Part shown: piece by piece, positions 30,792-51,468 of the stretch
Position numbering within the stretch: position 1 is the first letter of the stretch
Layout: each line of letters opens with the position of its first letter
Notes under the pieces: generated by a model
Databases searched by the model: none
The model's input: only the letters and a program-made list of their open reading frames with translations
Told to the model about the DNA's origin: nothing
Virus record (IMG/VR): IMGVR_UViG_3300007775_000001
Span: 50,951-114,950 of that record
Source: a virus
DNA: 64,000 bases
Strand: one strand, 5' to 3'
Made by a program: the position numbers and the translations under genes

Positions 30792-30805
30792 CGGAGTCTT
30801 GTAAA

Positions 30806-31060: not shown

Positions 31061-31752
31061 GATCAGAGATCGTGAAGTGGATTCGGATTGTTGTTTTCAG
31101 GACGGTGAAGGGAAAGGGGTTGATCAATCTTGACATTGACAACCTCATCTCCGCCGGATATCTGGGTTACGCTCAGGCGTTGAAGAACTACGATGAGCGT
31201 AAGAAGGTCAAGTTCAAGACCTTTGCTGAGTATCGCATCAAAGGCGCGGTACTTGACGAGGTTCGACGTGTGATCGGTGACGAGCGGTGTAAGACGGAAA
31301 GGCCAGTTAGGGTCAATGATGTCGATTTCGAGATGATCATTGATCCTCGTGACTATGGTTGTGAGTTCGAGATCGATTTCGAGAAGTTCATGGATGCGTT
31401 GCCGATGACTGTCCGTGAGAAGAACATTCTCCGATCACGCATTCAGGGTATGAGCCTGAAGGAGATCGGACAGCAGTTTAGGTTCAGCGAATCCCGTGCT
31501 TCTCAGATTCTCTATAGCATCCGTGTGAAGGCTGCACCAACGTTCGAGCGATTTTTTGGAATCAAGGTGGTGGTTGCACCAAGATTTCGCAAGTATCGGC
31601 GTACCTCGTCCGATAATGGAGTGAGGAGATTCCCGTGGAATCTGGCGTTTGCCGATATGTGTCGGCGCAACAGGGTGGGGCGAATCATTTCAATTCGGTC
31701 GCACCAATTCCCAATCCAACCTCTCCCTTGGCTTAGAGCGAGCGGTCAATGA
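31057..31752 (+). CDS. phage sigma70-family factor, FliA/WhiG-like
   Basis: [12 protein letters not shown]...YD.....[18 protein letters not shown]; region 4 [17 protein letters not shown]. Confidence 0.88.
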
Positions 31753-33617
31753 AGCTGACCTTGGACGATTACGCCGCTGTGTTGGATGACGTTGTCAAAG
31801 CGGCTTCCAAGAGTTCGGGACGCAAGACATTCGAAGATTTTGAAGAAGAGATCGGTAAGTCTCTAACCTTCAATCCGCTTGCTCCCACAGAGATGACTCC
31901 TGAAGTTGTTGCGAGAGAGGGTATTTACTCTCCCTATGCACAGGCTCCAGAAGGCGGGTTTGTACCGCATACCGCTGAGCACTGGATGGGGATGGGCAAA
32001 GACCCCGATGACTATCGCAACGTTCACCAGATTTATGAGGAAGCTGGTGCCAAACAGCCTTCTCTCGATAGCCTGAGACACATGTTCGTGCAAGCTATCG
32101 AAGACACTGATCGCGCTGGCCGAAGTTTCTCGTTCCTGTCGCGTTCTATCAAGCCGACTGAATGTGAAATGATCGTGAAGGGTATTCCTATGCCGTCCAA
32201 GGGTGGCGGCATGAAGGATATGGGGATGCCTGTGGGAACGATTCATCGGTTCAGTGATGGTAAGCAGTATCGGAAAGAAGCTCCTGGCAAGTGGGTTCCG
32301 GTGTCAGCCGGTGCGAAGCCGGGTGGAAAGGAAGACGCTACTCAGTCAGGACACGTTGAGATCGAGCGACATGCGATGATCACTCGTATTCGACAGGAGA
32401 TGGATCGTCGTACCAAAGCGGCTGCTGACCAGAAGCAGTTGGAAGGTCGTATGAAGCAGACGGCCAAGAAGTATGCGACCAAACAGACTGAAGCGGCTGG
32501 GATCAAGTCCCCGGTAGATCAGCTACCGAAAGACAAGGACAAGCCTGGAAACTTCGATCTGTTGGAAGGAGCGGACGCGGCGAAGAAGATTTACTTCATC
32601 GAGGGCTCGAAGGTCAAGATGGATCACGTTCAACAGTTCTTGAAGGAGTTCAGTCAGGACTTCAAGGACATCGATTCGAACGGTCAGAATTCGAAGTTCC
32701 GTGAAGACATGATGAGCAATGGGGCGTTGTATTATACATCCCGGCTCAAGGGGCCTGATTCTCTACTGAAGAAGATGCAGAGCAAGTATCTCGACCGCTC
32801 TCTTAACACGGTGACTGACGCGATTGGTGCGAGAGCGTTGGCAGGTAGTCTGGAAGATCAGAAGCGGCTCTTCACGTTCTTCAAGTCTCAGCATGAGTTG
32901 GTCGAAGAGGAAGACTTCGCTGAGCAGGGGCGTCCCGATGGATATCGGGCGATCCATTGTCTGTTCCGGACAAGTTCCGGAAAGATCGGTGAGTTTCAGT
33001 TCAAGACGATCAATCAACAGCTTTACTCTGGGTATTTCCATGACACGGTTTACAAGGGTAGTAAAGCTATTCAGGACGATCCAGAGGTAGCGAAATTTCA
33101 GAGAGATGTGTCGGACTATCTGCACAGGCTTGATTCTGGTCAGGAACAGTTCGATATCAATCGCGCTCCAAAGGCTCCAAAGCAACTTGTGGCTGCGAAG
33201 TACAAGGACGAGAAGGGTAAGGAGCAGACGGCTGGAGAGTTTCCTTGGGAAAACGTTCGGACTAAGAATGTGGGTGACTATCTGTACAAGGCAGATGACG
33301 AGTCTCAGAGTGTGAAGTATTTTCTGGTGTTGCGCGATAAGAAAGGCAACACGGTTGGAACCAAGAGCTACAACAGCCTGGAGGCTGCGCAGAAAGAACA
33401 GACACGTCTTCTCAATCAGAAGAACTATGGCGATCTTCCTATTGCTCAGGCTACGAGCGAGAAGGAGTTGTTCGCCACCTTCCATGAGTACAGACCACGG
33501 GTCGGCTCACAGGTTGACGATCAGAGCAAAGACAAAAGCCCTGCCAAGTACACAAGGGGTTCAAAAACGACCCCTCAGAAGCGGAAATTTGGGAGAGACC
33601 AAAATGGCTCACGATGA
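31749..33617 (+). CDS. head-module protein with RelA/SpoT-type small alarmone synthetase domain
   Basis: SRLK..DSL.KK, TDAIGAR, GYRAIH, EFQFKT, HD.VYK. Confidence 0.85.
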   Translation: MKLTLDDYAAVLDDVVKAASKSSGRKTFEDFEEEIGKSLTFNPLAPTEMTPEVVAREGIYSPYAQAPEGGFVPHTAEHWMGMGKDPDDYRNVHQIYEEAGAKQPSLDSLRHMFVQAIEDTDRAGRSFSFLSRSIKPTECEMIVKGIPMPSKGGGMKDMGMPVGTIHRFSDGKQYRKEAPGKWVPVSAGAKPGGKEDATQSGHVEIERHAMITRIRQEMDRRTKAAADQKQLEGRMKQTAKKYATKQTEAAGIKSPVDQLPKDKDKPGNFDLLEGADAAKKIYFIEGSKVKMDHVQQFLKEFSQDFKDIDSNGQNSKFREDMMSNGALYYTSRLKGPDSLLKKMQSKYLDRSLNTVTDAIGARALAGSLEDQKRLFTFFKSQHELVEEEDFAEQGRPDGYRAIHCLFRTSSGKIGEFQFKTINQQLYSGYFHDTVYKGSKAIQDDPEVAKFQRDVSDYLHRLDSGQEQFDINRAPKAPKQLVAAKYKDEKGKEQTAGEFPWENVRTKNVGDYLYKADDESQSVKYFLVLRDKKGNTVGTKSYNSLEAAQKEQTRLLNQKNYGDLPIAQATSEKELFATFHEYRPRVGSQVDDQSKDKSPAKYTRGSKTTPQKRKFGRDQNGSR

Positions 33618-36600
33618 CCTGTTGGCGAAAGCTGGCATTCGGGTCGGCAATCCAGCGGAGCGGCGTTTGATCAACGATGAGCCTTCTCATCGATTTGTGG
33701 TCAAGGGCTTCAAGAATAGAGGAAGCGTCTCTCGTGCTGGTTCTCAGTCCAGCCCCCGCGAGAATTTGCTTCGAAGTCTGGGCATTCCGGACGAGGGTGC
33801 TCTTGAGAAGGCTACTCTGTACGGGAACGATGGTGATCTGGAGTACGTTCCTGATACGTACACGGGTCAGGATGTGTATCATCAAGACCCGTACAACGAG
33901 GTTCAGGTGACACGTCAGGAAGTGCTCGATACGCATGGTGAGCATTTTCACAGCGATATCGATCCAGATGTGGAGCGCATTTTGAGTGAAGTTACCGAAG
34001 CGGGAACACACTTCGACTACACTCGTCAGTTCGGTCGTTCGATGGGTGCCTTCGATGGTGACGATGATGGTGATGACAACACAGAAGGTAAAGAGGAAGA
34101 AGAGAAGTCGAAGCTCAAGGCCAAGGATGTCAAGAAAGCTAGAAGAAGTGGCCCTGGTTCCCGTGGTGGAAGGGTAATTGGTCATACTCGTTCTGGCAAA
34201 CCGATCTATGACAACAGTGCGAAAAATCACAGTGGATTCACAAAAGAAGATCATGCCGATGCTCGTGATCTTCATACCTCTATCCATGAAAAGATGCTCG
34301 AAAGAGTGATGCATGGTGGAGAGTTTCCATCTGATTCGGCCATACTGAGCACAAAGGCCAAAGATTATCATGCTCGTTTGGCAAAATCTGAATCAGACGA
34401 TGAAGAAGAAAGCGACGAGGAGCCAGATGATGATGAAGACGATCAGGAGAAGTCTCTGTCTGGCATTTTGGATGATCTGATCAAGGGAGAGGGTGAAGGT
34501 TCTCGTGGTGGCAAAGTGATTGGTCATACATCGAGTGGGAAACCAATCTATATCCACGAGCCGAATTTGGGTACTTCTAGTGCTGGTGGTATCCATGGAA
34601 AGAATTATAAGGGGTGGAATTGGAAAGATCATGAAGAAGCGTATGCTGCGCATTCTGCCGCTGCTAATTCTCTCGTACAGAAGCATGGTGGGTATCCAAA
34701 AGGTGATGATGCAAAGACTTATGTGCAGCATGCTCACAACAAGGATGCACATTACTTTTGGGCAAAAAAGACTGGTCATCCTGAATTGAACAAAAGCCTG
34801 GGAAAGTCTAGTGCCGGGGAGGGTTCCAAGGGTGGTCAGGTGATCGGCCATACCCGCTCTGGCAAGCCGATCTATGCTCACGATTCAGCGATCTATGCCC
34901 ATGGCACAGGCGCTTTCAGTGGGTACAGCAAGGGTGATCACTTTGATGCCTACACGCGCCATTCAAACGATCTGAAGTACAAACGTGGTCGTAGTGGGAA
35001 GAAGAACTTCTTGTCCGCGATGAAGCTCCATTCGCAGGCTTACTACGCTGCGAAGAGCGAGCGTGATCCAGACCTTCCAGACTTTTTGAAGTCGAAGAGT
35101 GGCGAGGGCTCTCGTGGTGGCAAGGTGATTGGTCACACACGGTCTGGCAAGCCGGTCTATGAGGGTAAGGCGGCGTCTAAGTATTCTGATTTTTCACGTC
35201 AGGATCACAAAGATGCTGCTGCCCAACACATGCGTCATTGGCATGATGATGACTCAGAGAGTGCGGACGGGAGTGATCAAATTTCGGTCGATCATGATCG
35301 ATTGTCTTTGACTCCAGAGCAGTTGAAGAATCGTGATGCCAAGCGCCGTGGTGTTCTTGGCAAAAAGTCTGTTTCTGTTCTGGACGATTTGGTCAAAGCT
35401 GTAACTGGCGAGGGCTCCCGTGGTGGTGTGGTTGTGGGTCATACATCGAGTGGCAAACCCATCTATCAAGGTGAGACTCATTCGACACGGATTCACACTA
35501 CGACTGGCGAAGAGACTTCCCATGTGAATTCGTACATCCAGCATGCGGGTGATGAGAAACCGTATGGTGGTGAGAACTACCACGTTTTCTATCAACGCAA
35601 GGGTGCTCAAACCCAAGGCGACAATGAGACTGATGCGGATCGGGATTACGTTGGGTATGTGATCCGCCACAAAGACGAGGGCATATGGTCTGGTCACCCT
35701 GAGATCACGAGCATGAGTGCTTACAAGCAGGCGAAGAACTTCAAGACCAGAGGCGAAGCTGAACACCATATCCTGAGCACCTATAAACGGTATCAGGAAG
35801 CGTCGAAGCCGAAAGATCAAAAAGCCGCTAGCGTCCAGGAGGCGAACGATCTGTACAAGGCTTTGATGGATATCTCGTTGAACAAAGCCACCGATGCCCA
35901 AGAAGACAAGGTGCATCAGGTGATGCGCGAATTCAAAGAAGGCACGCTTCGTTCGGGGAGCAAGACTGGCCCGAAGGTCAAGAACCGGAAGCAGGCGATT
36001 GCCATTGCCATGAATCAGTCTGGGCAGTCGAACAAGTCTGACGATGAGGCGAGCGATCTTCTCAAGAGCAGAATCTTCCCCATCGGTACAGTTCATACGT
36101 TCAGTGATGGCAAGCAGTACAAGAAGGTCGCTAACAACGAGTGGCACCCTGTTAAGGGAGAAGGCCCACGTCGATATGACTACGCCGCTGCTGTTGACCA
36201 CAACAGCAAGATCGAGGTTGGTCAACATGTCCGTGTAAATTGGACGGCTGGGAGTTTCGGTCACTACACGGGCAAGGGCACCGTGACCAAAGTCAATGCC
36301 AAATCTGTAGCGGTGGCATTGGATGAACCCGTTGCTGATCAAAGTGGCCTTGGCGGAAGTGGCTATCCCGCTGGTCGTCGAATTGTTGTTCCACGGGCTG
36401 ACATGTTCAGTGGTGCAAACTCCAAATGGGCATGGCACAACGGAGTTTTCCCGGTTCATGGTGAGGGCAAGAAGTCGAGTATCGATGAATTGCTCGATCT
36501 TGTGAAAGCTGGCTCATCGAAAGAAGTTGCGCCAACTTCTACACCAACAAGAAGGACTGTTCCTTCCGCGCGCAACTCGTTCATCAAAGCGGCTGGCCCT

Positions 36601-37089
36601 GGAGGAGTCCTGTTCGATTTTGGTCATCTGACCGGGAACCTTGCTGCCGACAGATATTCCGAGCTTGCCAATCAGCATGCGGAGCCGCAACAGGCTGCAA
36701 TTCTGAAGTCTCAGAAAGCTGAGTACGATCAGGCTCTCGTGGAGTATGTCACTACTGGTCGTACGAGAGAACAGGATGTTTCTCCACAACAGGGTGCAGA
36801 TGTTCAGAAGTCAGATGAGCAACATGGTGCTCAAACGGCCGATGTGTCAAAGCCGGTCTTCATGGGCGATTTTCGGACTCAGTTCGAGAGCAAACAGGCT
36901 CGTGTTGGTAGTGAGGTCGTGAAGGCTCAGTCTGAGACCGACCAAGCTGTGATCGAGATGTTTGGTAAGAACCTGGGTGATGCTCCAACCGATATGACCA
37001 TGGCTGGGAAGACCCCGGTTGTTCTCGATCTGGCTTCGGGAGCGGCAATCGACATGCAGAGCGGCGAGCAGATTCAACCTGCTGAGTAA
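33604..37089 (+). CDS. modular head-associated polyprotein (5 GxGSRGG repeats, DUF6496-like and SH3-like domains)
   Basis: ATG 33604 with GGGAGAG RBS; internal repeats; many xxK[AS] sites; directly upstream of portal. Confidence 0.8.
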   Translation: MAHDDLLAKAGIRVGNPAERRLINDEPSHRFVVKGFKNRGSVSRAGSQSSPRENLLRSLGIPDEGALEKATLYGNDGDLEYVPDTYTGQDVYHQDPYNEVQVTRQEVLDTHGEHFHSDIDPDVERILSEVTEAGTHFDYTRQFGRSMGAFDGDDDGDDNTEGKEEEEKSKLKAKDVKKARRSGPGSRGGRVIGHTRSGKPIYDNSAKNHSGFTKEDHADARDLHTSIHEKMLERVMHGGEFPSDSAILSTKAKDYHARLAKSESDDEEESDEEPDDDEDDQEKSLSGILDDLIKGEGEGSRGGKVIGHTSSGKPIYIHEPNLGTSSAGGIHGKNYKGWNWKDHEEAYAAHSAAANSLVQKHGGYPKGDDAKTYVQHAHNKDAHYFWAKKTGHPELNKSLGKSSAGEGSKGGQVIGHTRSGKPIYAHDSAIYAHGTGAFSGYSKGDHFDAYTRHSNDLKYKRGRSGKKNFLSAMKLHSQAYYAAKSERDPDLPDFLKSKSGEGSRGGKVIGHTRSGKPVYEGKAASKYSDFSRQDHKDAAAQHMRHWHDDDSESADGSDQISVDHDRLSLTPEQLKNRDAKRRGVLGKKSVSVLDDLVKAVTGEGSRGGVVVGHTSSGKPIYQGETHSTRIHTTTGEETSHVNSYIQHAGDEKPYGGENYHVFYQRKGAQTQGDNETDADRDYVGYVIRHKDEGIWSGHPEITSMSAYKQAKNFKTRGEAEHHILSTYKRYQEASKPKDQKAASVQEANDLYKALMDISLNKATDAQEDKVHQVMREFKEGTLRSGSKTGPKVKNRKQAIAIAMNQSGQSNKSDDEASDLLKSRIFPIGTVHTFSDGKQYKKVANNEWHPVKGEGPRRYDYAAAVDHNSKIEVGQHVRVNWTAGSFGHYTGKGTVTKVNAKSVAVALDEPVADQSGLGGSGYPAGRRIVVPRADMFSGANSKWAWHNGVFPVHGEGKKSSIDELLDLVKAGSSKEVAPTSTPTRRTVPSARNSFIKAAGPGGVLFDFGHLTGNLAADRYSELANQHAEPQQAAILKSQKAEYDQALVEYVTTGRTREQDVSPQQGADVQKSDEQHGAQTADVSKPVFMGDFRTQFESKQARVGSEVVKAQSETDQAVIEMFGKNLGDAPTDMTMAGKTPVVLDLASGAAIDMQSGEQIQPAE

Positions 37090-37091
37090 CC

Positions 37092-38849
37092 ATGGGAATC
37101 ATTCAGAAAGCTGGTCGATATATCCTGGGCGAAATCGCTGGGATGAGACCCGATATGGTCAAGGCGGGTCTCATGTCTCCGGATTCGTCTGCCTACGATC
37201 CAAAGACATCCCTTGTCGATCCTCTCTCGTTTCAATCGCTCAGTGCATTTGGGTATCGAGAGAAGTTCAGTCTTCTGGATTACTCCCGGTTGCGGGCGAT
37301 CAGCTTGAATGATTCGGTGGTTGCTGCTGTGATTCAAACCCGGTTGAATCAGGTGGCTGGGTTTGCCACGTTGCAGGCCGACAAGCATACGGGTGGTTTC
37401 ACGATCCGTATGCGAGACAGGGACAAGAAGCCAAACTCTGCTGCTCAAAAGCGTATTAAGGAATTCCAGGAGTTCATGATCAACTGTGGTGTGCCTGAGC
37501 AGTTCGAAGACACACCGGAGCGTAAGCGTCGTGACAATTTCGACACCTTCTTGCGCAAGTTGACACGGGATTCTTTGACGTATGATCAAGCCAACTTTGA
37601 GATAACGCCAAGAAGGAATGGGATGCCGTACGAGTTCGGTGCGGTAGATGCCTCTACTATTCGGCTCATCCCGGACAAGAAGGAATTGATCGATCAGTTC
37701 AACAACGAGCGTGCAGCACAGTATGCTCTTCAGACGATGAAGGATACGATCAAGGTTGCTGAGAATTCTGGCAAGGTCTTCAAGCCCCGTCATCCGAAGT
37801 ATGTCCAGGTGATCAATGGGATCATCAAGCACGACTACGATGAATGGGAGATGGCGTTTGGTGTACGCAACCCCCGGACAGATGTAATGTCGTATGGGTA
37901 TGGATTCAGTGAGATCGAAATGCTGGTGACGATCATCACTGCACACATGAATGCGGAGACCTACAACCGGAAGTTCTTCACACAGGGGACAAACGCCAAG
38001 GGAATTCTCCACTTCGAGGGTCAGGTTCCGCGTGATCAACTTCAGGAGTTCCGGCACCAATTCCACATGCAGGCGGCTGGAATCGCCAACTCCTTTAAGA
38101 CCCCGATCATTGCGACGGCAAAGGAAACTAAGCTTCAGTGGATGGACTTCCAGAAGTCAAACCGCGAGATGGAATTTGGGCGGTGGTTGGAATACTGCAT
38201 CAAGGTTGTCTGCTCTGTTTACCAGATCGATCCGATTGAAATCGGATTCGACATCTCTCGAATGGGTTCGGGTGCATCACAGGGCGGTGGGTATGGGATG
38301 GGTGCCAGTGCTGGTGACCCGACTTCCAAAATTTCGAGTTCTCAGGACAAGGGACTCAAACCATTGCTGCGCTTCCTCCAATCGCTGATCAATGACTACA
38401 TCGTTTACCGATTGGATGCGGACTTCGAGTTCGAATTTGTTGGTCTCAACGCGGACTCTGATAGCGAAGCTCTGGACAAGATTGGCAAAGAGGTCAAGAC
38501 ATTCAAAACGATCAACGAGGTCAGGGCGGAGCAGGATAGACCTGCTTTGCCTCCTCTTGATCAGATTGAGTCTCCTGGTGATCTGCTTCTCGATAGCACT
38601 CTTCTTACTATTTGGGGACAAGAGAGACAGGCAAAACAACAGCAAGACATGATGGCTCAGCAAGGGCAGGACGGTGGTGATGGGAATCCCGTTGGCGAAG
38701 ATGAGCAGCCTGATTACCAGAACATGAGTGATGAAGACCTTCAGCAACAGTACAAGAAGTTGCAGGAAGGCGGCGGTGGTGGTGGAAGCCTTTCCCAAGG
38801 TGGCGTCAACAAATCGATGCCCCGGTTGACTCGCACACTGAGACTGTGA
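37092..38849 (+). CDS. portal protein
   Basis: Herelleviridae-type: II.TR.NQV..F, DSLTYDQ.NFE, VDASTIR, RNPRTD...YGYGFSE.E, YN.KFF.QG, DP.EIGF, S.DKGLKPLL.F, TINEVR. Confidence 0.92.
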   Translation: MGIIQKAGRYILGEIAGMRPDMVKAGLMSPDSSAYDPKTSLVDPLSFQSLSAFGYREKFSLLDYSRLRAISLNDSVVAAVIQTRLNQVAGFATLQADKHTGGFTIRMRDRDKKPNSAAQKRIKEFQEFMINCGVPEQFEDTPERKRRDNFDTFLRKLTRDSLTYDQANFEITPRRNGMPYEFGAVDASTIRLIPDKKELIDQFNNERAAQYALQTMKDTIKVAENSGKVFKPRHPKYVQVINGIIKHDYDEWEMAFGVRNPRTDVMSYGYGFSEIEMLVTIITAHMNAETYNRKFFTQGTNAKGILHFEGQVPRDQLQEFRHQFHMQAAGIANSFKTPIIATAKETKLQWMDFQKSNREMEFGRWLEYCIKVVCSVYQIDPIEIGFDISRMGSGASQGGGYGMGASAGDPTSKISSSQDKGLKPLLRFLQSLINDYIVYRLDADFEFEFVGLNADSDSEALDKIGKEVKTFKTINEVRAEQDRPALPPLDQIESPGDLLLDSTLLTIWGQERQAKQQQDMMAQQGQDGGDGNPVGEDEQPDYQNMSDEDLQQQYKKLQEGGGGGGSLSQGGVNKSMPRLTRTLRL

Positions 38850-39415
38850 TGAAGAAAATCATTCGCGATGCATTCTCGTATGTTGAGTACAAGGGGAAGA
38901 CTGCGCCGCAAGAGCGATGCAGTACTTGCTTCTATGGGACGTTTCCAGGAAGTAAGTGCTCGTTGTACGAGGCTATCAATGGGTTGATGCCCGAAGCATG
39001 GAATCTCGAAGATACCGTGAATCCAAACGGAGCATGCAACGCTTTTACTGACAAGGAAGTGACAAAGGCAGTGATTAGACGTGATCCGATTTTTGTGCTG
39101 AAGGCTGGTGGCGAGGGTTCTCGTGGTGGCAAGGTGATTGGTCACACATCGAGTGGAAAGCCGATTTATGGAGATAGTCATTTGAGAGGTACGCGGGAAT
39201 GGTCTGAGCGTGACCATTTTGAAGCGTATCACGTTCATGGTAAGGCGGATAGACCGGGTTCTTCGCTTGAAGACGCTAGACTCCATTCTGCCGCAAGGTC
39301 TTATCATCTTAGTGAGGGTAGTAAGGTTGGTGGAATCAAGAATGATGGGCCACATAAAAGACATCCTTGGTTCACATCAAGCGGTCAACGGAAACGGTTT
39401 ATGAGCAGATCATGA
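38849..39415 (+). CDS. HiPIP-like Cys4 domain fused to GEGSRGG repeat
   Basis: Y........CSTC.......CSL...VNPNGACNAF then LKAGGEGSRGGKVIGHTSSGKPIY. Confidence 0.6.
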   Translation: MKKIIRDAFSYVEYKGKTAPQERCSTCFYGTFPGSKCSLYEAINGLMPEAWNLEDTVNPNGACNAFTDKEVTKAVIRRDPIFVLKAGGEGSRGGKVIGHTSSGKPIYGDSHLRGTREWSERDHFEAYHVHGKADRPGSSLEDARLHSAARSYHLSEGSKVGGIKNDGPHKRHPWFTSSGQRKRFMSRS

Positions 39416-39639
39416 TCGAAGTCAAGATCAGTGCGGATACTCAAGAGGAGTTCGATGCCAAACGTGCCGATCTTGCCAAGGCTGTTATCGGCCCGAAGGC
39501 TATCACCCCTCGAAAGGCTTATCATCGGTATCAGAACGACTTGCTGGACTATGTGAACGCACTATACCTCAAGCGTATAGCGCAAATGAAGCGAGAGATC
39601 GATGTTGTGATCCGGCGCGCCCAGGCGCGAATCCAATGA
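39412..39639 (+). CDS. hypothetical protein
   Basis: ATGA coupling; contains DLAKA. Confidence 0.6.
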   Translation: MIEVKISADTQEEFDAKRADLAKAVIGPKAITPRKAYHRYQNDLLDYVNALYLKRIAQMKREIDVVIRRAQARIQ

Positions 39640-39869
39640 AGATTCTGCTGATGATCACTGTGGTGGCGATGTCGGGTGTCAAAGCTCCTGCAATCAGCTT
39701 CAAGAGCATGTGTGATGCGATTGATCCTGAAGCTATCACGCTCATCACAATTCGGCCTTTCAGGGACGCACAGAATGGGACTGTTATTCCAGGCGTTGTC
39801 TACCAGTGTGTGCGGATCACGGAAGGTGAAGAGAAGGGCACCAAACCTCAAAGGAAGCAGAAGGCATGA
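39636..39869 (+). CDS. hypothetical protein with signal-peptide-like N-terminus
   Basis: ATGA coupling at both ends. Confidence 0.5.
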   Translation: MKILLMITVVAMSGVKAPAISFKSMCDAIDPEAITLITIRPFRDAQNGTVIPGVVYQCVRITEGEEKGTKPQRKQKA

Positions 39870-42800
39870 GCAGTTTCTACGTAGAAACTGAATCTGTTTC
39901 CAAGGGTGGTCGAGAGGTTGCTTCCGTTGCGGTGATGAGCGGGTCGAATCTCTTGATGGGCCGCCGCAAGGATTCTGGCGAGTGGACTTTGCCGGGCGGT
40001 GGATTGGAACCGGGCGAGAAGCCCGAAGAAGGGGCCAAGAGGGAGCTTTTTGAGGAGGCAGGGGTCAGGGTAGGGCAGCTCCGATATCTGGGCTCCAGGC
40101 GCGTTAAGGGCGTTCCTGATAACGATCTGATCACGGTGCATGCCTTCCTGGTGCATCAACATGGGAAGGCAACTGTCCGAAACGATCCTGACAAGGAAGT
40201 GAGCCGGTGGTCATGGATCGATGTGAGCAACGGTCTTCCGAAAGCGATTGAAGATGAACTTCACTCCCCACGGAACGTGGTTCTCATGATGATGGGTATT
40301 CAGAAAGAGCCAAAACCGTCCCTGGTGATTCGATCTGACCTGGGGCCTATCGACCTATCCAAGATGTATGGAGGAGGGGTTGGAGAGGCTTCTGACAGCG
40401 AATTTGGTACCTATTCTGGCGGTGGTGGGAAAAAGCCGGGTGGCCCTGGTTCTCGCGGTGGAAAGGTGATCGGACGTACACGGTCTGGGAAACCGATCTA
40501 CGAGAGCGCATCCCATTATGGTCACAACAGCTTCTTTGCGGAAGAGCATCTTCAGGCTGCTGAAGCGCACAAGCATCATGCAGGGAGTTTGCTTGAACAC
40601 ATGAAGGGCAACCTTCATGGGAATACTTCGAATTTCAAGACGCTGATGGGCAAGATTGAAGCCCACATGACTGAGGCCGATGAGCATCGGAAGAAAGCTG
40701 GAACCGCTCCAAAAGCTCCCCGCAAGAAGGCCGAGCCGGCCAAGAAGGAGTATCGCTATGCAGCTTCCGTATTCGATGATTCGGATATCATCAAGAGTCT
40801 GGAGGCCATAGTTAAGCATGTCGAAAAGCCCGGTTCTCGTGGTGGTCATATCATCGCCTGGAGAGATGGCGAACCGATTTATGGAAAGGAGCAGCCAAAA
40901 GTTAAACGTAAGGTGGCTAGTGCTACAGTCAAATACACAACAGCATTGAGTCCTAGTGGGAAGAAAGAAAACGTGGCTGTTCATTTGAATCCATCCGCTG
41001 ATGATTTGGCTGAACATATTCCAGCCGGTGCAAGAGCGTGGCTTCTGCCGGGTGGAAATTTGTATGTCATGGACAACAAGAATATTTTGCATCTTTCTGC
41101 TATCGAGTCTGTGATGAATTCTGGATTCATCACCAAGCAGCAATTCAGAGATATCATCCCGCCAAAGAGTTTCTTGAGTGATACCGATCCTTCTGAGGGT
41201 ATCATGTTGGAGAGAGTTGGTAATTCCAATATGTTTGTGTTGGGTGAATCTTATGAAGGCGGTGTTCCGGAGGGTGATGAGCTATCTGACATCAAGGATT
41301 CGATCAGAGCTTTCAAGAAAAATTCAAAAGGCGTGATCATCCGGCCAAGTAGTATTAGAGATTTCAATGTCGAAGACTACTTGCATATGAGCTTCGATCA
41401 AGAAGAATTTGATCTGTGGAAGGCGGATGATAAGATGATTTCCACTCCCCAGAAGGGGATGGTTAAAAAGCATGAACATCTTGTCCGCGTCCCGAAGACA
41501 CCAAGCCATATGAGCTTTTTTGTGAAGGCTGCTCCAGGAGAAGTCCGCCCTGGTCACAAGTATTTGCGACGGTACAGACGGAATGATCAGTGGGTATACG
41601 TCTATCGCGAGCCAGAAGGTGATACCCGTGAATTGAACGAGGAGGCTATGTCGCTTCTTCACCATCTTGCGGCGCGTGGTGACGAAGATGCCACGTATCT
41701 TCTGAACAACCTGAAAGAGAAAGCGGCTGACGAGGTTCTTGATCGTGAGTTGAATGGCACGGAACGTCATGATGTTGTGCAGATGATTCGGAACAGTCTC
41801 GATCAGAATGTGTTCCGATATTTGAATCAGTATACTACGAGCCCGTTCCATCAAACGCTCACACGGAATCGTGTGACGTTGGATTCCGTGATGTCTCAGG
41901 TTCAGGGACAGACATTGCGCGGTCTGCTGACAAGTTATCACAACGCCCTGCGAGATGTGGATCGGGCTCATTCGACATTGCAGATCACGAGTTCTCAGAA
42001 CACTGATGCTCGCGGTGCGGGTGGTTATGCAAATCTTGCGTACAACAGAGCCTTGCAGGCGTTGGAGACTCGTACTGCGTTCTTGCCAGCGCGCTATTCC
42101 GAAGTCCATCGGAGAGGTACACGGAGCGGTTCGAATGATCTTGAACCGTTTGTGAACACTCAAGAGATACGAGAAGCCGCTGAGCGCCAAGAGCGAGAGC
42201 GTCAAGCTGCCGAAGCTGAACGCGAACGACAAGCCGCTGAAGAACGCGAGCAGATCATGGGTGAGTATCGCACCAAGATGACCGGTGCGATCATCGATCA
42301 TCTTGATCCTAGCGTTCATGTTTCTCCTGACAAGATTGCGACCATCCATCGTGCTCTGAAGAACATGTTCGGTGGCAATGTTCCTACACGGGAACAGTGG
42401 CCTTACGACTTTTCACAGTATGGGTACAGGGTCAAGATTTCTGATGTGGCCGCTGACAACAATACCATCTCGTTCGCACTGAGCGCGACCAACGCTTCTG
42501 GAGAGCAAGTCACTCGTTCATGGCGTCGGAATTGGCGGAACAACGGTGGTCATCCAGCGATCTACAACGCGCTCCTGGAGACCTATCCATCCGCTCGTGG
42601 GACTGGCCCTGAGATTGGCGAGTTGATCAACAAGGCTCAGAACAAGTTGATGCATGAGACCGATCCTGACCATGGTGTGATTGGAGTCTTCGCTGCAATG
42701 ACAGTGGGTGGCTACAATTGGGCCAATCAGGGCTTCAGATTTGATCGGGCAAGTGGTGATCGTGGTGTGGTTTTGATGCAGTTTAGGAACTTCCTGGCTG

Positions 42801-43735
42801 AGCATGGGATCAGATTGACAGACGAGGAACTGAGTCACTTCAAGGAGCCATGCCATTTTGCCGCTTTCCATGATGGCAAGTTCTACGAGGTGCATACTTC
42901 GGACGATCTCGCACTGAAGCCCGATCAGGTTGCTCATGGAACATTGGACGGGAAACCTGGAGGTAGACCGCTTACTCCTTCTGAGATTAGCGCAGGTCGC
43001 ACCAATCGAATGCTTGTTCACCTTGGCAAGATGTTTCTCTTGGGCAAGTCATGGCACGGTATCTCTAGGGCTTCGGAGCAGAATGACCGCAACGAGGCGT
43101 GGCGGTTCTTCCAGATTTATCGTCGCATGAAGGTGGATTCCTGGAAGGTACTCAATGACCGATACAAGGCTGCTGTTGAAGCTGTACAGCAGGGCCAGCG
43201 CACTATGACTTCAGAGCAGCGAGCGGCTGCGATTTCAAGCTACAACCCGTACGTGCGGAGAGGAAGTAGGCGTCGAAGATCGTCAACTATTCGAAGACCG
43301 AATCGATTCAGGGATTGGACTCCAACCCAACAGAGAACTTGGATTGATCGGAATCGCGGTCAGTTGTCGGATGCTCAATACAATTCGGCATGGGAAGTGA
43401 TGAGAAGTGCGAGACATCGTGTTGACATGGCGAGTCGTGCTCTTCAGACGTTTGTGAATGATGGTATTGTGACCGCGCCTTCGGCACCTCTCAATGAGAT
43501 GAACGAGACAGACCTTCGACACTTTTTCCATGGTGAGTATAATTACTCAACGCGGACACAGGTTTCGCAAGGTGTCATGAATGAGCTTCGAGCGCATTAT
43601 GGTGAAGGCGATACAGCAATCTACAATCGCCATTTCCGGGAACTCAGGTTCTATCAGGACGATTTGATCAATGCTCGTCGTGCTCGTATTGCCGCTGAAG
43701 CGCGGCCAGCCGGACAACAAAGAGCAACAGGATAA
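39866..43735 (+). CDS. modular head-associated polyprotein: Nudix hydrolase, GxGSRGG repeats, GNAT-like domain
   Basis: Nudix box GGGLEPGEKPEEGAKRELFEEAG; PSARGTG..IG...VGGYNWANQGF. Confidence 0.8.
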   Translation: MSSFYVETESVSKGGREVASVAVMSGSNLLMGRRKDSGEWTLPGGGLEPGEKPEEGAKRELFEEAGVRVGQLRYLGSRRVKGVPDNDLITVHAFLVHQHGKATVRNDPDKEVSRWSWIDVSNGLPKAIEDELHSPRNVVLMMMGIQKEPKPSLVIRSDLGPIDLSKMYGGGVGEASDSEFGTYSGGGGKKPGGPGSRGGKVIGRTRSGKPIYESASHYGHNSFFAEEHLQAAEAHKHHAGSLLEHMKGNLHGNTSNFKTLMGKIEAHMTEADEHRKKAGTAPKAPRKKAEPAKKEYRYAASVFDDSDIIKSLEAIVKHVEKPGSRGGHIIAWRDGEPIYGKEQPKVKRKVASATVKYTTALSPSGKKENVAVHLNPSADDLAEHIPAGARAWLLPGGNLYVMDNKNILHLSAIESVMNSGFITKQQFRDIIPPKSFLSDTDPSEGIMLERVGNSNMFVLGESYEGGVPEGDELSDIKDSIRAFKKNSKGVIIRPSSIRDFNVEDYLHMSFDQEEFDLWKADDKMISTPQKGMVKKHEHLVRVPKTPSHMSFFVKAAPGEVRPGHKYLRRYRRNDQWVYVYREPEGDTRELNEEAMSLLHHLAARGDEDATYLLNNLKEKAADEVLDRELNGTERHDVVQMIRNSLDQNVFRYLNQYTTSPFHQTLTRNRVTLDSVMSQVQGQTLRGLLTSYHNALRDVDRAHSTLQITSSQNTDARGAGGYANLAYNRALQALETRTAFLPARYSEVHRRGTRSGSNDLEPFVNTQEIREAAERQERERQAAEAERERQAAEEREQIMGEYRTKMTGAIIDHLDPSVHVSPDKIATIHRALKNMFGGNVPTREQWPYDFSQYGYRVKISDVAADNNTISFALSATNASGEQVTRSWRRNWRNNGGHPAIYNALLETYPSARGTGPEIGELINKAQNKLMHETDPDHGVIGVFAAMTVGGYNWANQGFRFDRASGDRGVVLMQFRNFLAEHGIRLTDEELSHFKEPCHFAAFHDGKFYEVHTSDDLALKPDQVAHGTLDGKPGGRPLTPSEISAGRTNRMLVHLGKMFLLGKSWHGISRASEQNDRNEAWRFFQIYRRMKVDSWKVLNDRYKAAVEAVQQGQRTMTSEQRAAAISSYNPYVRRGSRRRRSSTIRRPNRFRDWTPTQQRTWIDRNRGQLSDAQYNSAWEVMRSARHRVDMASRALQTFVNDGIVTAPSAPLNEMNETDLRHFFHGEYNYSTRTQVSQGVMNELRAHYGEGDTAIYNRHFRELRFYQDDLINARRARIAAEARPAGQQRATG
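39873..39888. repeat. dispersed 16-bp palindrome, copy 6 (20-bp perfect)
   Basis: CAGTTTCTACGTAGAAACTG just inside ORF start. Confidence 0.95.
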
Positions 43736-43737
43736 TC

Positions 43738-43941
43738 ATGCCAAAAGACATCAAGCCAATCGAGTCGGTCAAAGACCGACTCGTTGATGTGAATGACATT
43801 GACAGCGAGCTTGACATCGATCCGTATTTCGGTGAACAGGTCGCTGACGCGGCGCGGGAATCGTTCAAGGAGTCCAATCCTGGTCTGTATGCTGTACTGA
43901 CCAAATACCGGAATCATGGCACTGACAGCAAGGGAACTTGA
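43738..43941 (+). CDS. hypothetical protein
   Basis: Closely coupled ORF. Confidence 0.55.
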   Translation: MPKDIKPIESVKDRLVDVNDIDSELDIDPYFGEQVADAARESFKESNPGLYAVLTKYRNHGTDSKGT

Positions 43942-44953
43942 GGAGATTCGCGATATCGTCCGTAGGCATTATCTTGCTCTGACGCATGATGCCACGGGTA
44001 ACATTTCGCTGACTCCAGCGGAACTTGCTGAGCTTCGCCGTGCTGGTCTGATCACTGGTCGTGAACCGGTGGTTATGCAGAATGCGTACGAGTTCGGCAA
44101 GGTGGCCGTTGCTGTGGGGCCGATTGCGGCCAGAGCCATGACGGTTGAACAAGTGCGTCTGGCGATTTCGAAAATGAAGCCTCTGACTGAAGTCGAGAGG
44201 GCCTCATTGGATTTCGCTCGTGCAAGTGCTGGGCAGTACATCAAGGGCATTATGGACATGACCCTGAAGGATGCCACTACTTCTGCAATGCGTGCTTCTG
44301 GTGCGGCATTGAGGGCTGTTCAGGAGGGTGTTTCAGAGGCAGTGGCAGACCGCAAGACGATCAGCGAGCTTCGCACTGAATTGTTTAACACCATCGACAA
44401 CCGGTCTCGTGACTGGACACGTATCGCTCACACAGAACTGACCAACGCGATCCAGAACGGTATCTACAATGAGATCAGGGATACCTCTCCGGCGGGGGCC
44501 GATCAGGTGGTGTTCAAGAGTCCGAATCCAGATGCCTGCAAATACTGCAAGGCACTCTATCTAAAGCCTGATGGAATTACACCACGGGTATTCAAGCTGA
44601 GAGACCTGGAGCCGTCAAACTTCGGCAGACGAGCGCGTGATTGGAAGCCTGTTGTTGGTGCAACTCATCCATGGTGCAACTGCCAGATTCACATCGTTCC
44701 GGATGGGTACGACTTTGTCACGAGGCCAGTGGTTCAAGAACAGTTTGACGAGGGCGGGAAGACGTACAAGCAGGGTCAACGATTGAGCGAGACAGAGTAT
44801 CGTACACTTCGGTCTTCGCATGCCGACAAGATAGGGAAAGGAGCGATTCTTGAGTTCACTGGTACGACGGCTGCACCAGAGATCATGAGAAGCATGTTGG
44901 ACAGTATCCCTATCCATTCGGTTGACGAGGAAGAACCGATCTGCGAGTGCTGA
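43916..44953 (+). CDS. MuF-like (SPP1 gp7) head morphogenesis protein
   Basis: RIAHTELTNA...G...ACKYC...THPWCNC. Confidence 0.85.
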   Translation: MALTARELEEIRDIVRRHYLALTHDATGNISLTPAELAELRRAGLITGREPVVMQNAYEFGKVAVAVGPIAARAMTVEQVRLAISKMKPLTEVERASLDFARASAGQYIKGIMDMTLKDATTSAMRASGAALRAVQEGVSEAVADRKTISELRTELFNTIDNRSRDWTRIAHTELTNAIQNGIYNEIRDTSPAGADQVVFKSPNPDACKYCKALYLKPDGITPRVFKLRDLEPSNFGRRARDWKPVVGATHPWCNCQIHIVPDGYDFVTRPVVQEQFDEGGKTYKQGQRLSETEYRTLRSSHADKIGKGAILEFTGTTAAPEIMRSMLDSIPIHSVDEEEPICEC

Positions 44954-47927: not shown

Positions 47928-48035
47928 GGGTTGACATTCTGAAAGTTCAGTTGTAGGGTAATCAAAATCCTACCTCGCAAGAGACTCGCGTTTGACGGAG
48001 TGGCGGGGGATGCAGGCGAAACAGGGTCTCTTGCT

Positions 48036-48902
48036 ATGCATGCCTCAGATTTCTTCATTGGCGAAGAAGCTTTCCGTGTGATCGTTCCTGAAGTAGCTTT
48101 CTTTGAGAAGGCTGATCAGGAAGAATTCAACAGTCGTCAAATCGCTGGCGTCATGTCCAGCGAGCGCACGGATCGTCAGGATGAGATTGTCATTGCCAAG
48201 GGTCTCGACTTCGAAGATTTCCTGAAGTCGGGTCACTTCAATGACAATCACAGTCAAGAGACCTCTGCAATCGTTGGCTACCCCGAAGAAGTCAAGCACC
48301 ATGAAGACCTTGGTTCGGTCAACAAGGCTCTCGAAGGTGCTCCTGGATGGACGTGCCGTGGCTATGTGCTGAAAGGCACCAAGCGTGCGGATGCAATCTG
48401 GGAACTTGCCAAGTCTCTTGCCGGAAACCCCAAGAAGAAGCTGGGCTTTTCTATCGAGGGGAAGATCATCCGTCGTTCTGATCATCGTATCGAGAAAGCG
48501 AGAATTCGGAACGTGGCAATCACAAACTGTCCTGTCAACACAGATGCAACCTGGAGTGTGTTGACCAAGTCCTTCTTGGACAGTGACTTTGCTATCAAGT
48601 CTTTGTCGGCTGGATACGCTACCAGTCCTGGTGTGCAATCTGGTGGTGGTGCTCTTCGCACTGAAGACCTCGATTCAGACGAGAAAGACGTGATGGAGGA
48701 GCGGAAGCGGAAAGAAGCCGCCAAGCTCAAAAGGGCGATGGACGCTCTTGCGAACGAGATCGGGTTCGACAATCTGCTGAAGGCAATGCAGGTGGTGATG
48801 GAGGAGCGGCCAGAATTCACAGAAGAGGCAGCCGCCTGCCTCGTGGTACGGAAATTCTTTGCCAAAGGAGCAAGCCATGAGCATTCAGTACGGGCGGCTT
48901 GA
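48036..48902 (+). CDS. prohead protease
   Basis: IAG.MS....DRQDE.V...GLD...F...G.FN..H...IVG.P; LGFSIEG; VAIT.CPVN.DATW. Confidence 0.9.
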   Translation: MHASDFFIGEEAFRVIVPEVAFFEKADQEEFNSRQIAGVMSSERTDRQDEIVIAKGLDFEDFLKSGHFNDNHSQETSAIVGYPEEVKHHEDLGSVNKALEGAPGWTCRGYVLKGTKRADAIWELAKSLAGNPKKKLGFSIEGKIIRRSDHRIEKARIRNVAITNCPVNTDATWSVLTKSFLDSDFAIKSLSAGYATSPGVQSGGGALRTEDLDSDEKDVMEERKRKEAAKLKRAMDALANEIGFDNLLKAMQVVMEERPEFTEEAAACLVVRKFFAKGASHEHSVRAA

Positions 48903-49101: not shown

Positions 49102-49116
49102 ACCTGGAGAGTGATC

Positions 49117-49956
49117 ATGCCAAAGGAAATCAGTCGTGACGATGTCCTGAAGGCTTTGGGAGAGCTTGAGGGTCATCTTCTTGGTCTCGATGGTGACGAT
49201 CTGGAAGATGATGTAACCAAGGCTTCCGAAGACGATCTGGATCAACCAGAAGGCGGGGACATGGGTTGGGGTGCTAACGGTAATCCCAAACTGTCCGATG
49301 AAGCGAATGATGACAACGGAGCCGGTGGGGCCAAGAAGAAGTCGCCCAAGAGCGGTTCTGTCAAGTCGGTGACCGGCAACAACAACAAGGTGAACGCCAT
49401 GGGCGACGATCTGTTGGACAAGTCCCACAAGGACTTCATGGATGACGAGGTGACAACCAAGATTGACGTGTCTGACTTCCTGAAGTCCATGGTTGAGGGC
49501 ACCGGGAAGTACATGGACAATCTTCGGGATGCTCTCGTGAAGTCGAGCGAGATCAATGAGGCGCGGTTCGATGATCTGATGACGGCTCATCAGGAAGTCG
49601 TTCAGAATCAAGCCAAATTGGGCGTGGTTCTGAAGGCGATCTGCGAGCGCATTGGTATGATCGAGAACTCGCCTGCTCATTCGGCCAAGTCCGACACGGT
49701 TGCCAAAGCTGGTGACGGTGCCCCAGCAGAGCGTCAGTTCCATCAAGGTCAAGAGCAGGAAGGCAATCAGCCCATCCTGAAGGGACTGAACAGCAATCCT
49801 ATGATTGCGAAGTCTCAGATTGCCGATACCCTGATCGGTCTCGTCAAGAAGGGTGAGGCGGAAGAAATGGACGTTGTCCAGTTCGATACGAACGGAATGA
49901 TCCGTCCAGAACTCATGCCCAAGCTTCAAGAGAAGTTTGGGATGCAGGCCAACTAG
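49117..49956 (+). CDS. putative capsid scaffolding protein
   Basis: Acidic/coiled-coil, between protease and MCP, with numerous xxK[ASG] sites. Confidence 0.7.
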   Translation: MPKEISRDDVLKALGELEGHLLGLDGDDLEDDVTKASEDDLDQPEGGDMGWGANGNPKLSDEANDDNGAGGAKKKSPKSGSVKSVTGNNNKVNAMGDDLLDKSHKDFMDDEVTTKIDVSDFLKSMVEGTGKYMDNLRDALVKSSEINEARFDDLMTAHQEVVQNQAKLGVVLKAICERIGMIENSPAHSAKSDTVAKAGDGAPAERQFHQGQEQEGNQPILKGLNSNPMIAKSQIADTLIGLVKKGEAEEMDVVQFDTNGMIRPELMPKLQEKFGMQAN

Positions 49957-49992
49957 AACGGCTGGATTCATTAAGGTGCAAGGAGAACAACG

Positions 49993-51468
49993 ATGAATGT
50001 TCCAATCATCGATCCGCGCCAGTATGAATCTCTTGGCAGAGATTTCAATGGATTTGGTGAATCCAGCCAAGAGATCGTCGCTGATCTGAACAAGGCTCTG
50101 TCGGCTGGCTACGCTACCGATCCGGCTTCTCAGTCGGCTGGCGGTGCGCTGCGCGTGGAGTCGTTGGATGCGACGTTGAAGATCGTGTCCTTCATGATGA
50201 AGCACATCCGGCTCTACAACGATGTGCCGAAGTCCAAGGCGTACAACACGGTGGAGGAGTACAACCTGCTCAGCAAGTATGGTGGGCGGGGGAGCTACTT
50301 CATCTCCGAAGGTGGTCTTCCTCGAACAGAGGATTCGACCTACCAACGCAAGGTGCAATTCGTGAAGTACATGGGCACCACAAGAGAGGTGACCCATCCG
50401 ATGCTTCTCGTCCGCCCTGCCCACGGAAACGTGGTTGCGTTGGAGACCAAGAATGGTTCGATGTGGATGCTGCAACGGATGGAAGAGGCTTTGTTCAAGG
50501 CCAACTCCGCTTCCGTGCCGCTGGCCTTCGATGGTCTGGATACTCAGTTGAAGGCTGGGTATGCAGATGCCGATACTGCTGGCGACGGCATTGCCGACAC
50601 TTCGGCCGTACATGTGCTCGACCTTCGGGGCGATCCACTGACGGAAGCTGTCTTCGAAGAAGCGGCGAAAGTCCTGCTCGACAACTATATGTTTCCAACG
50701 CACATGTACTTGCCGAATCAGGCGCACAGCGACTTCAACAAGATGTTCTTCAGCAAGGGTCGCTACAACATCCCGGTCGGTCAGGACATGGCGGTTGGTT
50801 TCAATACCGAAGCTGTGAAGACTTCCGGCGGCGCGGTGCAACTGCGGCCCGATGTGTTCCTGAGAACGGATCAGCAACCACCCACGACGGCGGACAACTC
50901 TTCCGCTCCGACCGCTCCTGCTTCGGCAACGGTTGCGGTGCAAGCGAAATCCACATCTCGTGGCTTCAAGACTGCTGAGTTCGGAACCTATGCCTACAAA
51001 GTGACTGCGATTTCGCAGTCTGGCGAATCGGCTCCGACTGCTGGTTCCGGGAACGCGGTGGTTGCTGCTCTGGGTGCTTCGGACGAGGTGAAGATTACCA
51101 TCGGTCGGGGTGCTCAGTCTGGCAACGATCTGACCACTGGTTACCGCATTTACCGCACGCGGTTGGAAGACGGCGCACCGGGAACGACTTGGTACTTTGT
51201 GACCGAGATTGCTTCTTCGGGTGCATCCACGATCTACCTGGACGGCAACGAGTTCTTGCCCGGTTTGGGTACTGCCTACATGGGGCAGATGGATGAGACA
51301 GTGTTGACCCTGAGAGAACTGAGCCCGATGCTCAAGTTCCCCCTGGCGACCATCGCATCCAGCATTCGGTGGATGCAACTGTACTACAACACGCCGATTA
51401 TCTTCCGCCCGCGTGGATGGGTGATCGTCAAGAACATCGGGCGCACTGGCGTACCGACTCTTGGCTAG
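49993..51468 (+). CDS. major capsid protein (Herelleviridae-type precursor)
   Basis: LNKA/LSAGY...GGALRVESLD; TVEEY; EG....D....RK....KYM; FDGL; PRGWVIVKNI. Confidence 0.93.
   Translation: MNVPIIDPRQYESLGRDFNGFGESSQEIVADLNKALSAGYATDPASQSAGGALRVESLDATLKIVSFMMKHIRLYNDVPKSKAYNTVEEYNLLSKYGGRGSYFISEGGLPRTEDSTYQRKVQFVKYMGTTREVTHPMLLVRPAHGNVVALETKNGSMWMLQRMEEALFKANSASVPLAFDGLDTQLKAGYADADTAGDGIADTSAVHVLDLRGDPLTEAVFEEAAKVLLDNYMFPTHMYLPNQAHSDFNKMFFSKGRYNIPVGQDMAVGFNTEAVKTSGGAVQLRPDVFLRTDQQPPTTADNSSAPTAPASATVAVQAKSTSRGFKTAEFGTYAYKVTAISQSGESAPTAGSGNAVVAALGASDEVKITIGRGAQSGNDLTTGYRIYRTRLEDGAPGTTWYFVTEIASSGASTIYLDGNEFLPGLGTAYMGQMDETVLTLRELSPMLKFPLATIASSIRWMQLYYNTPIIFRPRGWVIVKNIGRTGVPTLG

Follow-up and report, generated by a model that had tools for sequence, protein, structure and literature searches.

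The stretch of DNA analyzed here, referred to as the window, covers 64,000 nucleotides (positions 50,951 to 114,950) of the IMG/VR virus record IMGVR_UViG_3300007775_000001. The record is a complete genome of 114,950 bp with terminal repeats, from an uncultured phage, and the window is its right-hand 64 kb. Three plus-strand genes, located on either side of the portal gene and encoding the proteins P0001, P0002 and P0003, carry a repeated motif that is predicted to form the N-terminal β-hairpin of a small, histidine-rich domain, here called the module.

Eight module copies surround the portal gene

A six-frame regular expression search of the window found seven strict copies of the motif G[SK][RK]GGx[VI][VI]G[HR]TxSGKP[IV]Y. 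Five are in P0001, starting at 34156, 34498, 34822, 35107 and 35413, one is in P0002 (39116) and one is in P0003 (40448). A looser expression added a degenerate copy (PGSRGGHIIAWRDGEPIY), which starts at 40832 in P0003. No further copy turned up in the six frames of the window, whether on the other strand or in another gene, and when the whole genome (114,950 bp) was searched with a profile, only the same eight copies, in the three genes around the portal, were returned. This agrees with an earlier note on this DNA, made from the letters alone, which had listed eight copies in three genes; its starts lie about 6 nt upstream and include the preceding Gx. The copies are listed below with the E-values of the family profile; a vertical bar marks a predicted cleavage point.

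34135..34422, plus strand: module copy 1 (GPGSRGGRVIGHTRSGKPIY ... FTKEDHADARDLH) in P0001; E=3e-24; acidic, isoelectric point (pI) 5.3
34471..34785, plus strand: module copy 2 in P0001, with DDLIK|G upstream; E=2e-22
34798..35049, plus strand: module copy 3 in P0001, with LNKS/LGKS upstream; E=9e-20
35092..35304, plus strand: module copy 4 in P0001, with DFLKS upstream; E=1e-25
35383..35568, plus strand: module copy 5 in P0001, with DDLVK|A upstream; E=3e-14
39098..39310, plus strand: module copy 6 in P0002, the modeled unit; E=2e-21
40436..40720, plus strand: module copy 7 in P0003, with GRT in place of GHT; E=2e-22
40826..40906, plus strand: module copy 8 in P0003, a degenerate hairpin only, without the His helix; E=9e-4

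The earlier note had also described the segment [FWY]xxx[DE]HxxAxxxH after six copies, a K[ASG] site before most copies and synonymous codon differences between them, and each of these descriptions was borne out. The segment follows copies 1–4, 6 and 7 and is absent after copies 5 and 8; in copy 5 the hairpin is intact and the His motif of the first long helix, helix A, is degenerate. Six copies follow K[ASG] (KKA, IKG, GKS, LKS, VKA and LKA), and copies 7 and 8 follow KKP and EKP. Across 21 pairs of the 54-nt core, mean identity was 0.76 for nucleotides versus 0.87 for amino acids. On average, 7.6 of the 18 codons in a pair differed synonymously and 2.4 differed non-synonymously. Synonymous differences outnumber non-synonymous ones, and conservation is therefore at the protein level. 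The pattern cannot be due to chance, because the family profile matches 2,027 cluster representatives at E≤1e-3.

The module defines a large family without a described relative

The family profile was built from 13 sequences and used to search 1.84 billion protein clusters. Among the 2,027 matching representatives, 1,212 were found at E≤1e-10. Homologous proteins hold up to eight copies of the module, and proteins made solely of one to three modules are common.

The earlier note knew of no described family for the repeat, and our searches of family libraries, structures and literature lead to the same conclusion. The repeats in P0001, P0002, P0003, P0009 and P0014 match no Pfam or NCBIfam model at E≤0.1 and no PHROGs model at E≤0.01, and the only domains matched by family libraries were flanking ones, DUF6496 and NUDIX. 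The module itself matches neither the LPD models (LPD1–40) nor any other Pfam model at E≤0.1. A sequence profile search of the PDB gave chance rows only (E>1). When two structural models were compared with the PDB and BFVD by Foldseek, nothing fell below E=0.25; rows for the DpsC and CopM folds had E>0.2 and root-mean-square deviations above 20 Å. VIA-align, run against 48,161 chains, gave best Z scores of 5.7 and 8.2 to generic helical hairpins, within the stated noise of the tool. The ESM Atlas yielded no usable match, and the motif strings were not found in a literature search.

The family is almost entirely from uncultured phages. A tblastn search of 50,697 cultured phage records gave no match, even with the cut-off at E≤1. 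Cellular genomes are nearly free of the module: of 185,579 species genomes searched, it occurs in only three contigs of metagenome-assembled genomes, assigned to Bacteroidota, and at least the two long ones (89 and 109 kb) are presumably phage contigs.

The motif is the hairpin of an autonomous domain

Across 54 units from the window and 42 IMG/VR loci, the consensus L-x-K-[GA]-G-E-G-S-[RK]-G-G-x-[VI]-I-G-H-T-x-S-G-K-P-[IV]-Y is nearly invariant. The hairpin is followed by a linker of 11–84 residues (median 14), then by [FWY]-[ST]-x-x-D-H-x-[DE]-A-x-x-x-H and, about 30 residues past this DH/AxxxH helix motif, by an H-x6-H pair. The His of GHT is conserved in 53 of the 54 units, DH in 52, AxxxH in 46, and the two His of the second long helix, helix B, in 45 and 42. 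Loss of the helix-A His correlates with loss of the H-x6-H pair (odds ratio about 10). Each unit has about five conserved His and one Asp, located toward one end of the domain. In composition, the module is 13% hydrophobic and 8% His, with a median pI of 9.0.

An AlphaFold2 model of the P0002 unit (39086–39394) had a predicted local distance difference test (pLDDT) score of 79 and a predicted template modeling (pTM) score of 0.65, with 54 of 103 residues at 90 or above. It contains strands at residues 17–20 and 26–28 and helices at 41–54 and 61–82. A natural two-module protein was modeled with a pLDDT of 85 (137 of 200 residues at 90 or above) and a pTM of 0.58, and its inter-module linker is disordered. 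Each of its modules has strands at 22–25 and 31–33, a short helix at 39–43 and long helices at 46–70 and 77–102. The two independent models agree on the fold. In these models, the motif is the N-terminal β-hairpin of an autonomous domain of about 90 residues, in which the hairpin is followed by a short, His-containing helix and two antiparallel helices of about 25 residues each. The repeated domain proposed in the earlier note thus stands, while its size, given there as about 80 residues, is revised upward to about 90. The disordered linker and the pTM of 0.58 indicate that the modules are independent beads, and the alternative that tandem modules pair into a His-lined four-helix bundle is unsupported by the same values.

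Helix periodicity places core-facing His on both long helices, in DH-x6-H on the first and H-x6-H on the second. These residues occupy core positions of the heptads where the helical hairpin is open, beside the β-hairpin His and the Asp. A His/Asp metal site plausibly holds this small, polar fold together, as judged from the conservation of these residues and the modeled helix topology. The hairpin (GSRGGKVIGHTKSGKPIY) has four basic and no acidic residues. From this composition and the median pI, we infer that the hairpin may contact nucleic acid.

A protease-type site precedes the module

The element h-x-K-[AGS] lies within 12 residues upstream of the motif in 393 of 462 distinct units (85%). 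The commonest new N-terminus predicted to follow the upstream Lys is GGEG. In 14 related capsid proteins, an E-L-x-K-A element is invariant near residue 30 (~25–35), and the same element is present in the capsid proteins of the window and of SPO1. For the phi812 capsid protein, the PDB contains a 463-residue precursor (5lii) and a 439-residue chain (9row, 9rox and 9roz). The shorter chain begins at S25, after D-V-V-K24, and K24|S25 aligns with K34|A35 of the window capsid protein. This chain start calibrates the specificity of the protease as h-h-K|[AS], and maturation cleavage of the window capsid protein is predicted at DLNK34|A35.

Counts of [DE]..hhK[AGS] were compared with those in shuffled sequences. 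The motif occurs 12 times in P0001 (0.99 expected), 8 times in the scaffold-like protein (0.40 expected), 4 times in the head maturation protease (0.35 expected) and 5 times in the RelA/SpoT-domain protein encoded ahead of P0001 (0.7 expected). It is not enriched in the terminase, tail or early proteins of the window. For the RelA/SpoT protein, the enrichment suggests a packaged and processed alarmone-synthetase-like enzyme.

In homologues that are fused to a different protease, of the DUF2213 family, the upstream element switches to R-x-D-[AV]|G and the module core is unchanged. Such a switch would be expected of a site that is specific to each protease and borders a domain independent of it. 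The fragment that the prohead protease releases appears to have the module as its N-terminal part, and the enzyme that cuts before the modules is presumed to be the head maturation protease of the window (48000..48902). The C-terminal part of this protease (48600–48680) repeats the capsid cleavage junction and mature N-terminus (50095–50175), following K|[AS]LSAGYATxPxxQSxGGALRxExLD. A mimic of the capsid N-terminus is also found in the protease polyproteins of related loci (L023, L101, L104 and L135) and may act as a pseudo-substrate or a capsid-docking element.

Layout of the head region

The genes and features of the head region, in addition to the module copies, are as follows.

From 28859, plus strand: large terminase gene
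30341-31752, plus strand: three genes between the terminase and head cargo genes, with family profile matches
31749-33617, plus strand: RelA/SpoT-domain protein, 622 aa (PF04607, 3.4e-11)
33604..37089, plus strand: P0001, a 1,161-aa head-module polyprotein with five modules, DUF6496 and a GT[VI]HxFSDGKQY peptide module
35902-36015, plus strand: DUF6496 in P0001, residues 767-804 (PF20106, 9e-9)
37092..38849, plus strand: portal protein (PF04860, 2.5e-14; phrog_12, 1.5e-45)
38846..39415, plus strand: P0002, 189 aa, with an N-terminal 4-Cys region, FVLK|A and then one module
39866..43735, plus strand: P0003, a 1,289-aa polyvalent protein with a NUDIX domain (residues 19-123), module copies 7 and 8 and a long, unannotated C-terminal part
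43916..44953, plus strand: MuF-like head morphogenesis protein (weak phrog_4728 match)
48000..48902, plus strand: head maturation protease (phrog_1028, 1.6e-47)
49111..49956, plus strand: scaffold-like protein (phrog_15087, 1e-6)
49993..51468, plus strand: major capsid protein (phrog_752, 2.8e-89)

The order on the plus strand is terminase, cargo genes, portal, cargo genes, MuF, protease, scaffold-like gene, capsid and tail genes, the last including a sheath gene (55895). The portal protein is about 40% identical to the portals of SPO1 and CP-51, and the major capsid protein is 36–41% identical to capsid proteins of Herelleviridae. Portal, protease, scaffold and capsid genes are contiguous in an SPO1-like genome; therefore, about 15 kb of extra genes have been inserted around the portal in the present phage. 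The module genes are packed closely against the portal gene, the stop of P0001 abutting the portal start and the start of P0002 overlapping the portal stop. Two small open reading frames (ORFs) sit between P0002 and P0003, a small acidic ORF lies between P0003 and the MuF-like gene, and a 772-aa protein is encoded downstream of the latter.

Several further observations concern individual genes of this region. The three genes at 30341-31752 encode a PRTase-like ORF (weak match to PF00156, 1e-4, under the cut-off of that family), a cold-shock domain protein (PF00313, 7e-20) and a sigma-70-like protein with regions 2 and 4. The RelA/SpoT protein and P0001 share a second peptide module, G-T-[VI]-H-x-F-S-D-G-K-Q-Y-[RK]-K ... 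W-x-P-V, found by regular expression at 32235-32303 and 36085-36153, respectively. A third shared element, H-K-Y-[IL]-R-R ... Y-x-Y-[VF]-Y, is present in P0003 (41555-41605) and at the N-terminus of the 772-aa protein (44970-45020). The N-terminal 85 residues of P0002 (38846-39100) have the pattern C-x2-C-x9-C ... C. P0002 gave no Pfam, PHROGs or NCBIfam match, and a HiPIP reading of its N-terminus, which has no Pfam match at E≤0.1, is so far unsupported. On the minus strand, an 892-aa open frame (48817-51495) runs opposite the genes for the protease, scaffold and capsid proteins. It is almost certainly not a real gene but a shadow of strongly expressed plus-strand genes.

Relatives of the module lie mostly in head modules, and some are fused to head proteases

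As in the window, the module often occurs in two or three separate same-strand genes in the 42 IMG/VR loci. Genomic context was scored with hidden Markov models (HMMs) built from the portal, MuF, capsid, terminase and protease families of the window, within 10 kb and on the same strand. A random distribution of homologues with respect to head genes, which the earlier note had named as evidence against its proposed packaging-tag, DNA-binding or metal-binding domain, is not what we found. A head gene lies within this distance in 38 of 43 viral sequences, comprising the 42 loci and the window; of the 33 metagenome loci with lengths of 6 kb or more, 26 also have one. The MuF-like family is present in 16 of the same 43 sequences. 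Among 151 module genes, 12 are directly upstream of a portal gene, 8 are directly upstream of MuF, and 8 are the window-type protease itself, with modules behind the catalytic domain.

Longer homologues join modules to NUDIX, Zeta toxin, LPD1, DUF6496, ferritin-like (P0058) and AAA ATPase domains. DUF6496 is a recurrent partner, present with the module in the homologues P0010, P0099 and P0138 and in the protease polyprotein of locus L031. Modules are also fused to DUF2213, which equals phrog_530 (8e-57) and is a head maturation protease family unrelated to that of the window. That the module is fused to two unrelated prohead protease families supports, independently of the context counts, a function inside the procapsid.

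The DUF2213 lineage includes proteases with and without the module. In the metagenomic relatives P0098, P0101 and P0103, the module has been acquired behind the DUF2213 protease, and in the IMG/VR sequences L154 and L169 (~43-45 kb) the protease is without it. No ORF of L154 or L169 matches the portal, MuF, capsid or protease HMMs of the window lineage. The L154 protease is located within a compact run of ORFs of 540, 480, 283, 396, 159 and 329 aa. By size and order, the run in these two sequences resembles a terminase-portal-MuF-protease-capsid block, in which only the protease is identified by similarity.

Proposed role of the module

We consider it somewhat better than an even bet that the module is an internal head protein unit set free by a protease, comparable with the T4 internal proteins. 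Its synthesis would be late, within head-module polyproteins and polyvalent proteins that become incorporated into the procapsid. Cleavage by the prohead protease would then follow at h-h-K|[AGS], three to seven residues ahead of the motif, and it probably liberates each copy inside the capsid. Module proteins of about 10 kDa, mostly basic and His-rich, would be released inside the head together with any fused enzymes. The released modules would remain with the DNA in the mature head, and their ejection together with the DNA is probable. Proteins consisting only of one to three modules favor a payload over a mere tag.

Several points weigh against this reading. Because the module is known from no cultured phage, it has not been placed in a capsid by any virion proteome, N-terminal sequence or structure. 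Cleavage before the modules is deduced from a sequence motif, and copies 1, 7 and 8 of the window do not have the canonical upstream site. Helix periodicity and the hairpin topology of the model, rather than measured distances, are the basis for the clustering of the His residues. Two units of the window are acidic (pI 5.3 and 5.7), which counts against uniform DNA binding. The context counts (38 of 43 and 26 of 33) are not independent, as most loci come from one phage lineage with syntenic head modules. In addition, IMG/VR scans for the context of the DUF2213 lineage (P0103, P0137 and P0098/P0101) gave only module-less protease relatives.

The closest competitor is a pure capsid-targeting tag, which would dock cargo on the scaffold, the capsid interior or the portal and then be clipped off, with no role of its own. 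It would resemble the capsid-targeting sequence of T4 or the cargo-loading peptides of encapsulins. The module is often N-terminal in long proteins with diverse C-terminal parts, among them NUDIX, Zeta toxin, AAA ATPase, ferritin-like and LPD1 domains, and a putative cleavage site divides it from its neighbors. Its fusion to prohead proteases, which must enter the procapsid, and the tight adjoining of module genes to portal and MuF genes are also consistent with targeting. However, a tag does not readily account for the many proteins that contain modules and nothing else, nor for arrays of up to eight, in which each copy has its own predicted cleavage site. The module occurs with two different protease families, and the DUF2213 lineage would also be without window-type portal and capsid genes if the fusions share the head genes of L154 and L169; a single, specific docking partner is therefore less probable. 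Moreover, the protease polyproteins hold a separate mimic of the capsid N-terminus that could do the targeting. On balance, a pure tag is rather unlikely.

A more ambitious proposal, which we hold with considerable doubt, is that the module is a portable capsid-entry domain for HK97-fold capsids. A metal-stabilized mini-protein would incorporate itself into the procapsid core, be freed by the prohead protease of the given phage, the upstream site changing with the protease family, and ride the genome into the host with any fused enzyme. If true, this would be a new and widespread cargo-loading system for phage capsids, and the injected proteome of thousands of uncultured phages could be recognized from the module sequence alone.

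The His/Asp cluster could also be the actual function, binding Zn, Ni, Fe or another metal for metal carriage, sequestration or redox chemistry after ejection. The number of conserved His and Asp residues, the position of the His at core heptad sites toward one end of the helical hairpin and the correlated loss of His pairs all fit such a metal-centered payload, as do the ferritin-like fusion in P0058 and the 4-Cys region in P0002. Yet all-His sites fit a structural role equally, and the geometry of the site rests on predicted topology. The Gly/Arg/Lys hairpin is more conserved than the His helices, and no fold or sequence relation to any metalloprotein family was found. We regard this function as quite improbable.

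Alternatively, the modules could be auxiliary scaffolding elements that help to build the procapsid core and exit the head once cleaved, rather than remaining with the DNA. They take the place behind the protease that a scaffold domain has in protease-scaffold fusions, they share the cleavage-site grammar of the scaffold, and the helical-hairpin fold is like that of known scaffold coat-binding domains such as those of P22 gp8 and phi29 gp7. Against this, the window has a separate scaffold-like gene (49111-49956), folded domains of about 10 kDa are large for exit through capsid pores, and fusions to effector-type enzymes point to delivery rather than disposal, making a scaffolding role very improbable. 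Finally, a minimal enzyme, such as a His-Me-finger-like (β-β-α-metal) nuclease with the GH histidine as general base, is scarcely credible: the β-β-α-metal layout is brought to mind by the His that closes strand 1 and the His-bearing helix after it, and the Vvn nuclease (1oup_A) is among the weak Foldseek rows (E=7.2, TM 0.20), but this match is not significant, no such nuclease is among the VIA-align rows, the distance from strand 2 to the helix ranges between 11 and 84 residues, substrate-binding elements are absent, and up to eight tandem copies per protein are unlike any known catalytic domain.

Head-packed, injected proteins are the first weapons of a phage, and outside T4, P22, N4 and the phiKZ group they are almost impossible to spot from sequence. 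The nearly invariant 20-residue motif is an easily searched marker that flags such proteins in at least 2,027 clusters, and the protease-site grammar predicts their mature fragments. If the module is sufficient for incorporation, it could be used to load proteins of choice into phage capsids. Should it bind metal or DNA, the few known capsid-internal proteins would gain a new small fold. The module also represents a large and strongly conserved viral domain family that is still without a Pfam, PHROGs, NCBIfam or PDB entry.

Comparison with known systems

The T4 internal proteins IPI, IPII and IPIII are small and mostly basic, are located in the procapsid core, are trimmed by the prohead protease gp21 and are injected with the DNA. 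The unrelated cargo protein Alt uses the same route. The likeness of the module to these proteins is functional only, with no relation in sequence or fold, and P0001–P0003 have no PHROGs or Pfam match to internal head proteins. In T4, the tag is a short N-terminal leader that is removed at LxE. For the module, the predicted cut is at h-h-K|[AGS], ending in Lys rather than Glu, and the folded domain would stay on the product. Unlike the T4 internal proteins, module units are arrayed in tandem within polyproteins.

The coat-binding domains of the scaffolding proteins P22 gp8 and phi29 gp7 are short, antiparallel two-helix (helix-turn-helix) units that act inside the procapsid. The module has no detectable homology to them, adds an invariant β-hairpin and a His cluster, and is arrayed in tandem in a phage that also has a scaffold gene of its own. 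Encapsulin cargo-loading peptides are similar in being a conserved element across unrelated cargo for the interior of an HK97-fold shell. However, they are unstructured C-terminal peptides of about 10 residues, whereas the module is predicted to be a folded domain of 90 residues.

In role, the modules can be likened to the ejection (E) and inner-body proteins of phiKZ and SPN3US, from which they differ in phage lineage, protease family and site. The prohead proteases of phiKZ-like phages, we assume, cut after Glu. Passages of three reports describe how phiKZ-like phages such as SPN3US encode many head-internal proteins near head genes, which the prohead protease processes at a site with a simple consensus and which the phage ejects into the host (PMC7411985, PMC10052503, PMC5694885). 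No shared repeat module for the ejection proteins is described in those passages.

Polyvalent proteins are large, late-gene proteins that mix NUDIX, RelA/SpoT, Zeta toxin and PRTase domains and are encoded beside virion genes and MuF (Iyer et al. 2017, PMC5512222). They are predicted to be packaged and injected, and their processing was proposed to involve internal zincin-like peptidases (PMC5512222). P0003, with NUDIX, modules and a long unannotated part, combines disparate domains in the same manner, as do the longer module homologues. The module genes of the window are located among late, virion genes and are linked to MuF and the portal-terminase region, and module proteins co-occur with LPD1, as polyvalent proteins do. 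In place of the zincin-like peptidases, the evidence here points to the prohead protease, and the putative site upstream of the module matches the capsid site, as would be expected of substrates of a Herelleviridae-type prohead protease. The kind of system is known from protease-processed, capsid-internal proteins and from polyvalent proteins, while the domain family, the tandem polyprotein layout and the site grammar have not been described before.

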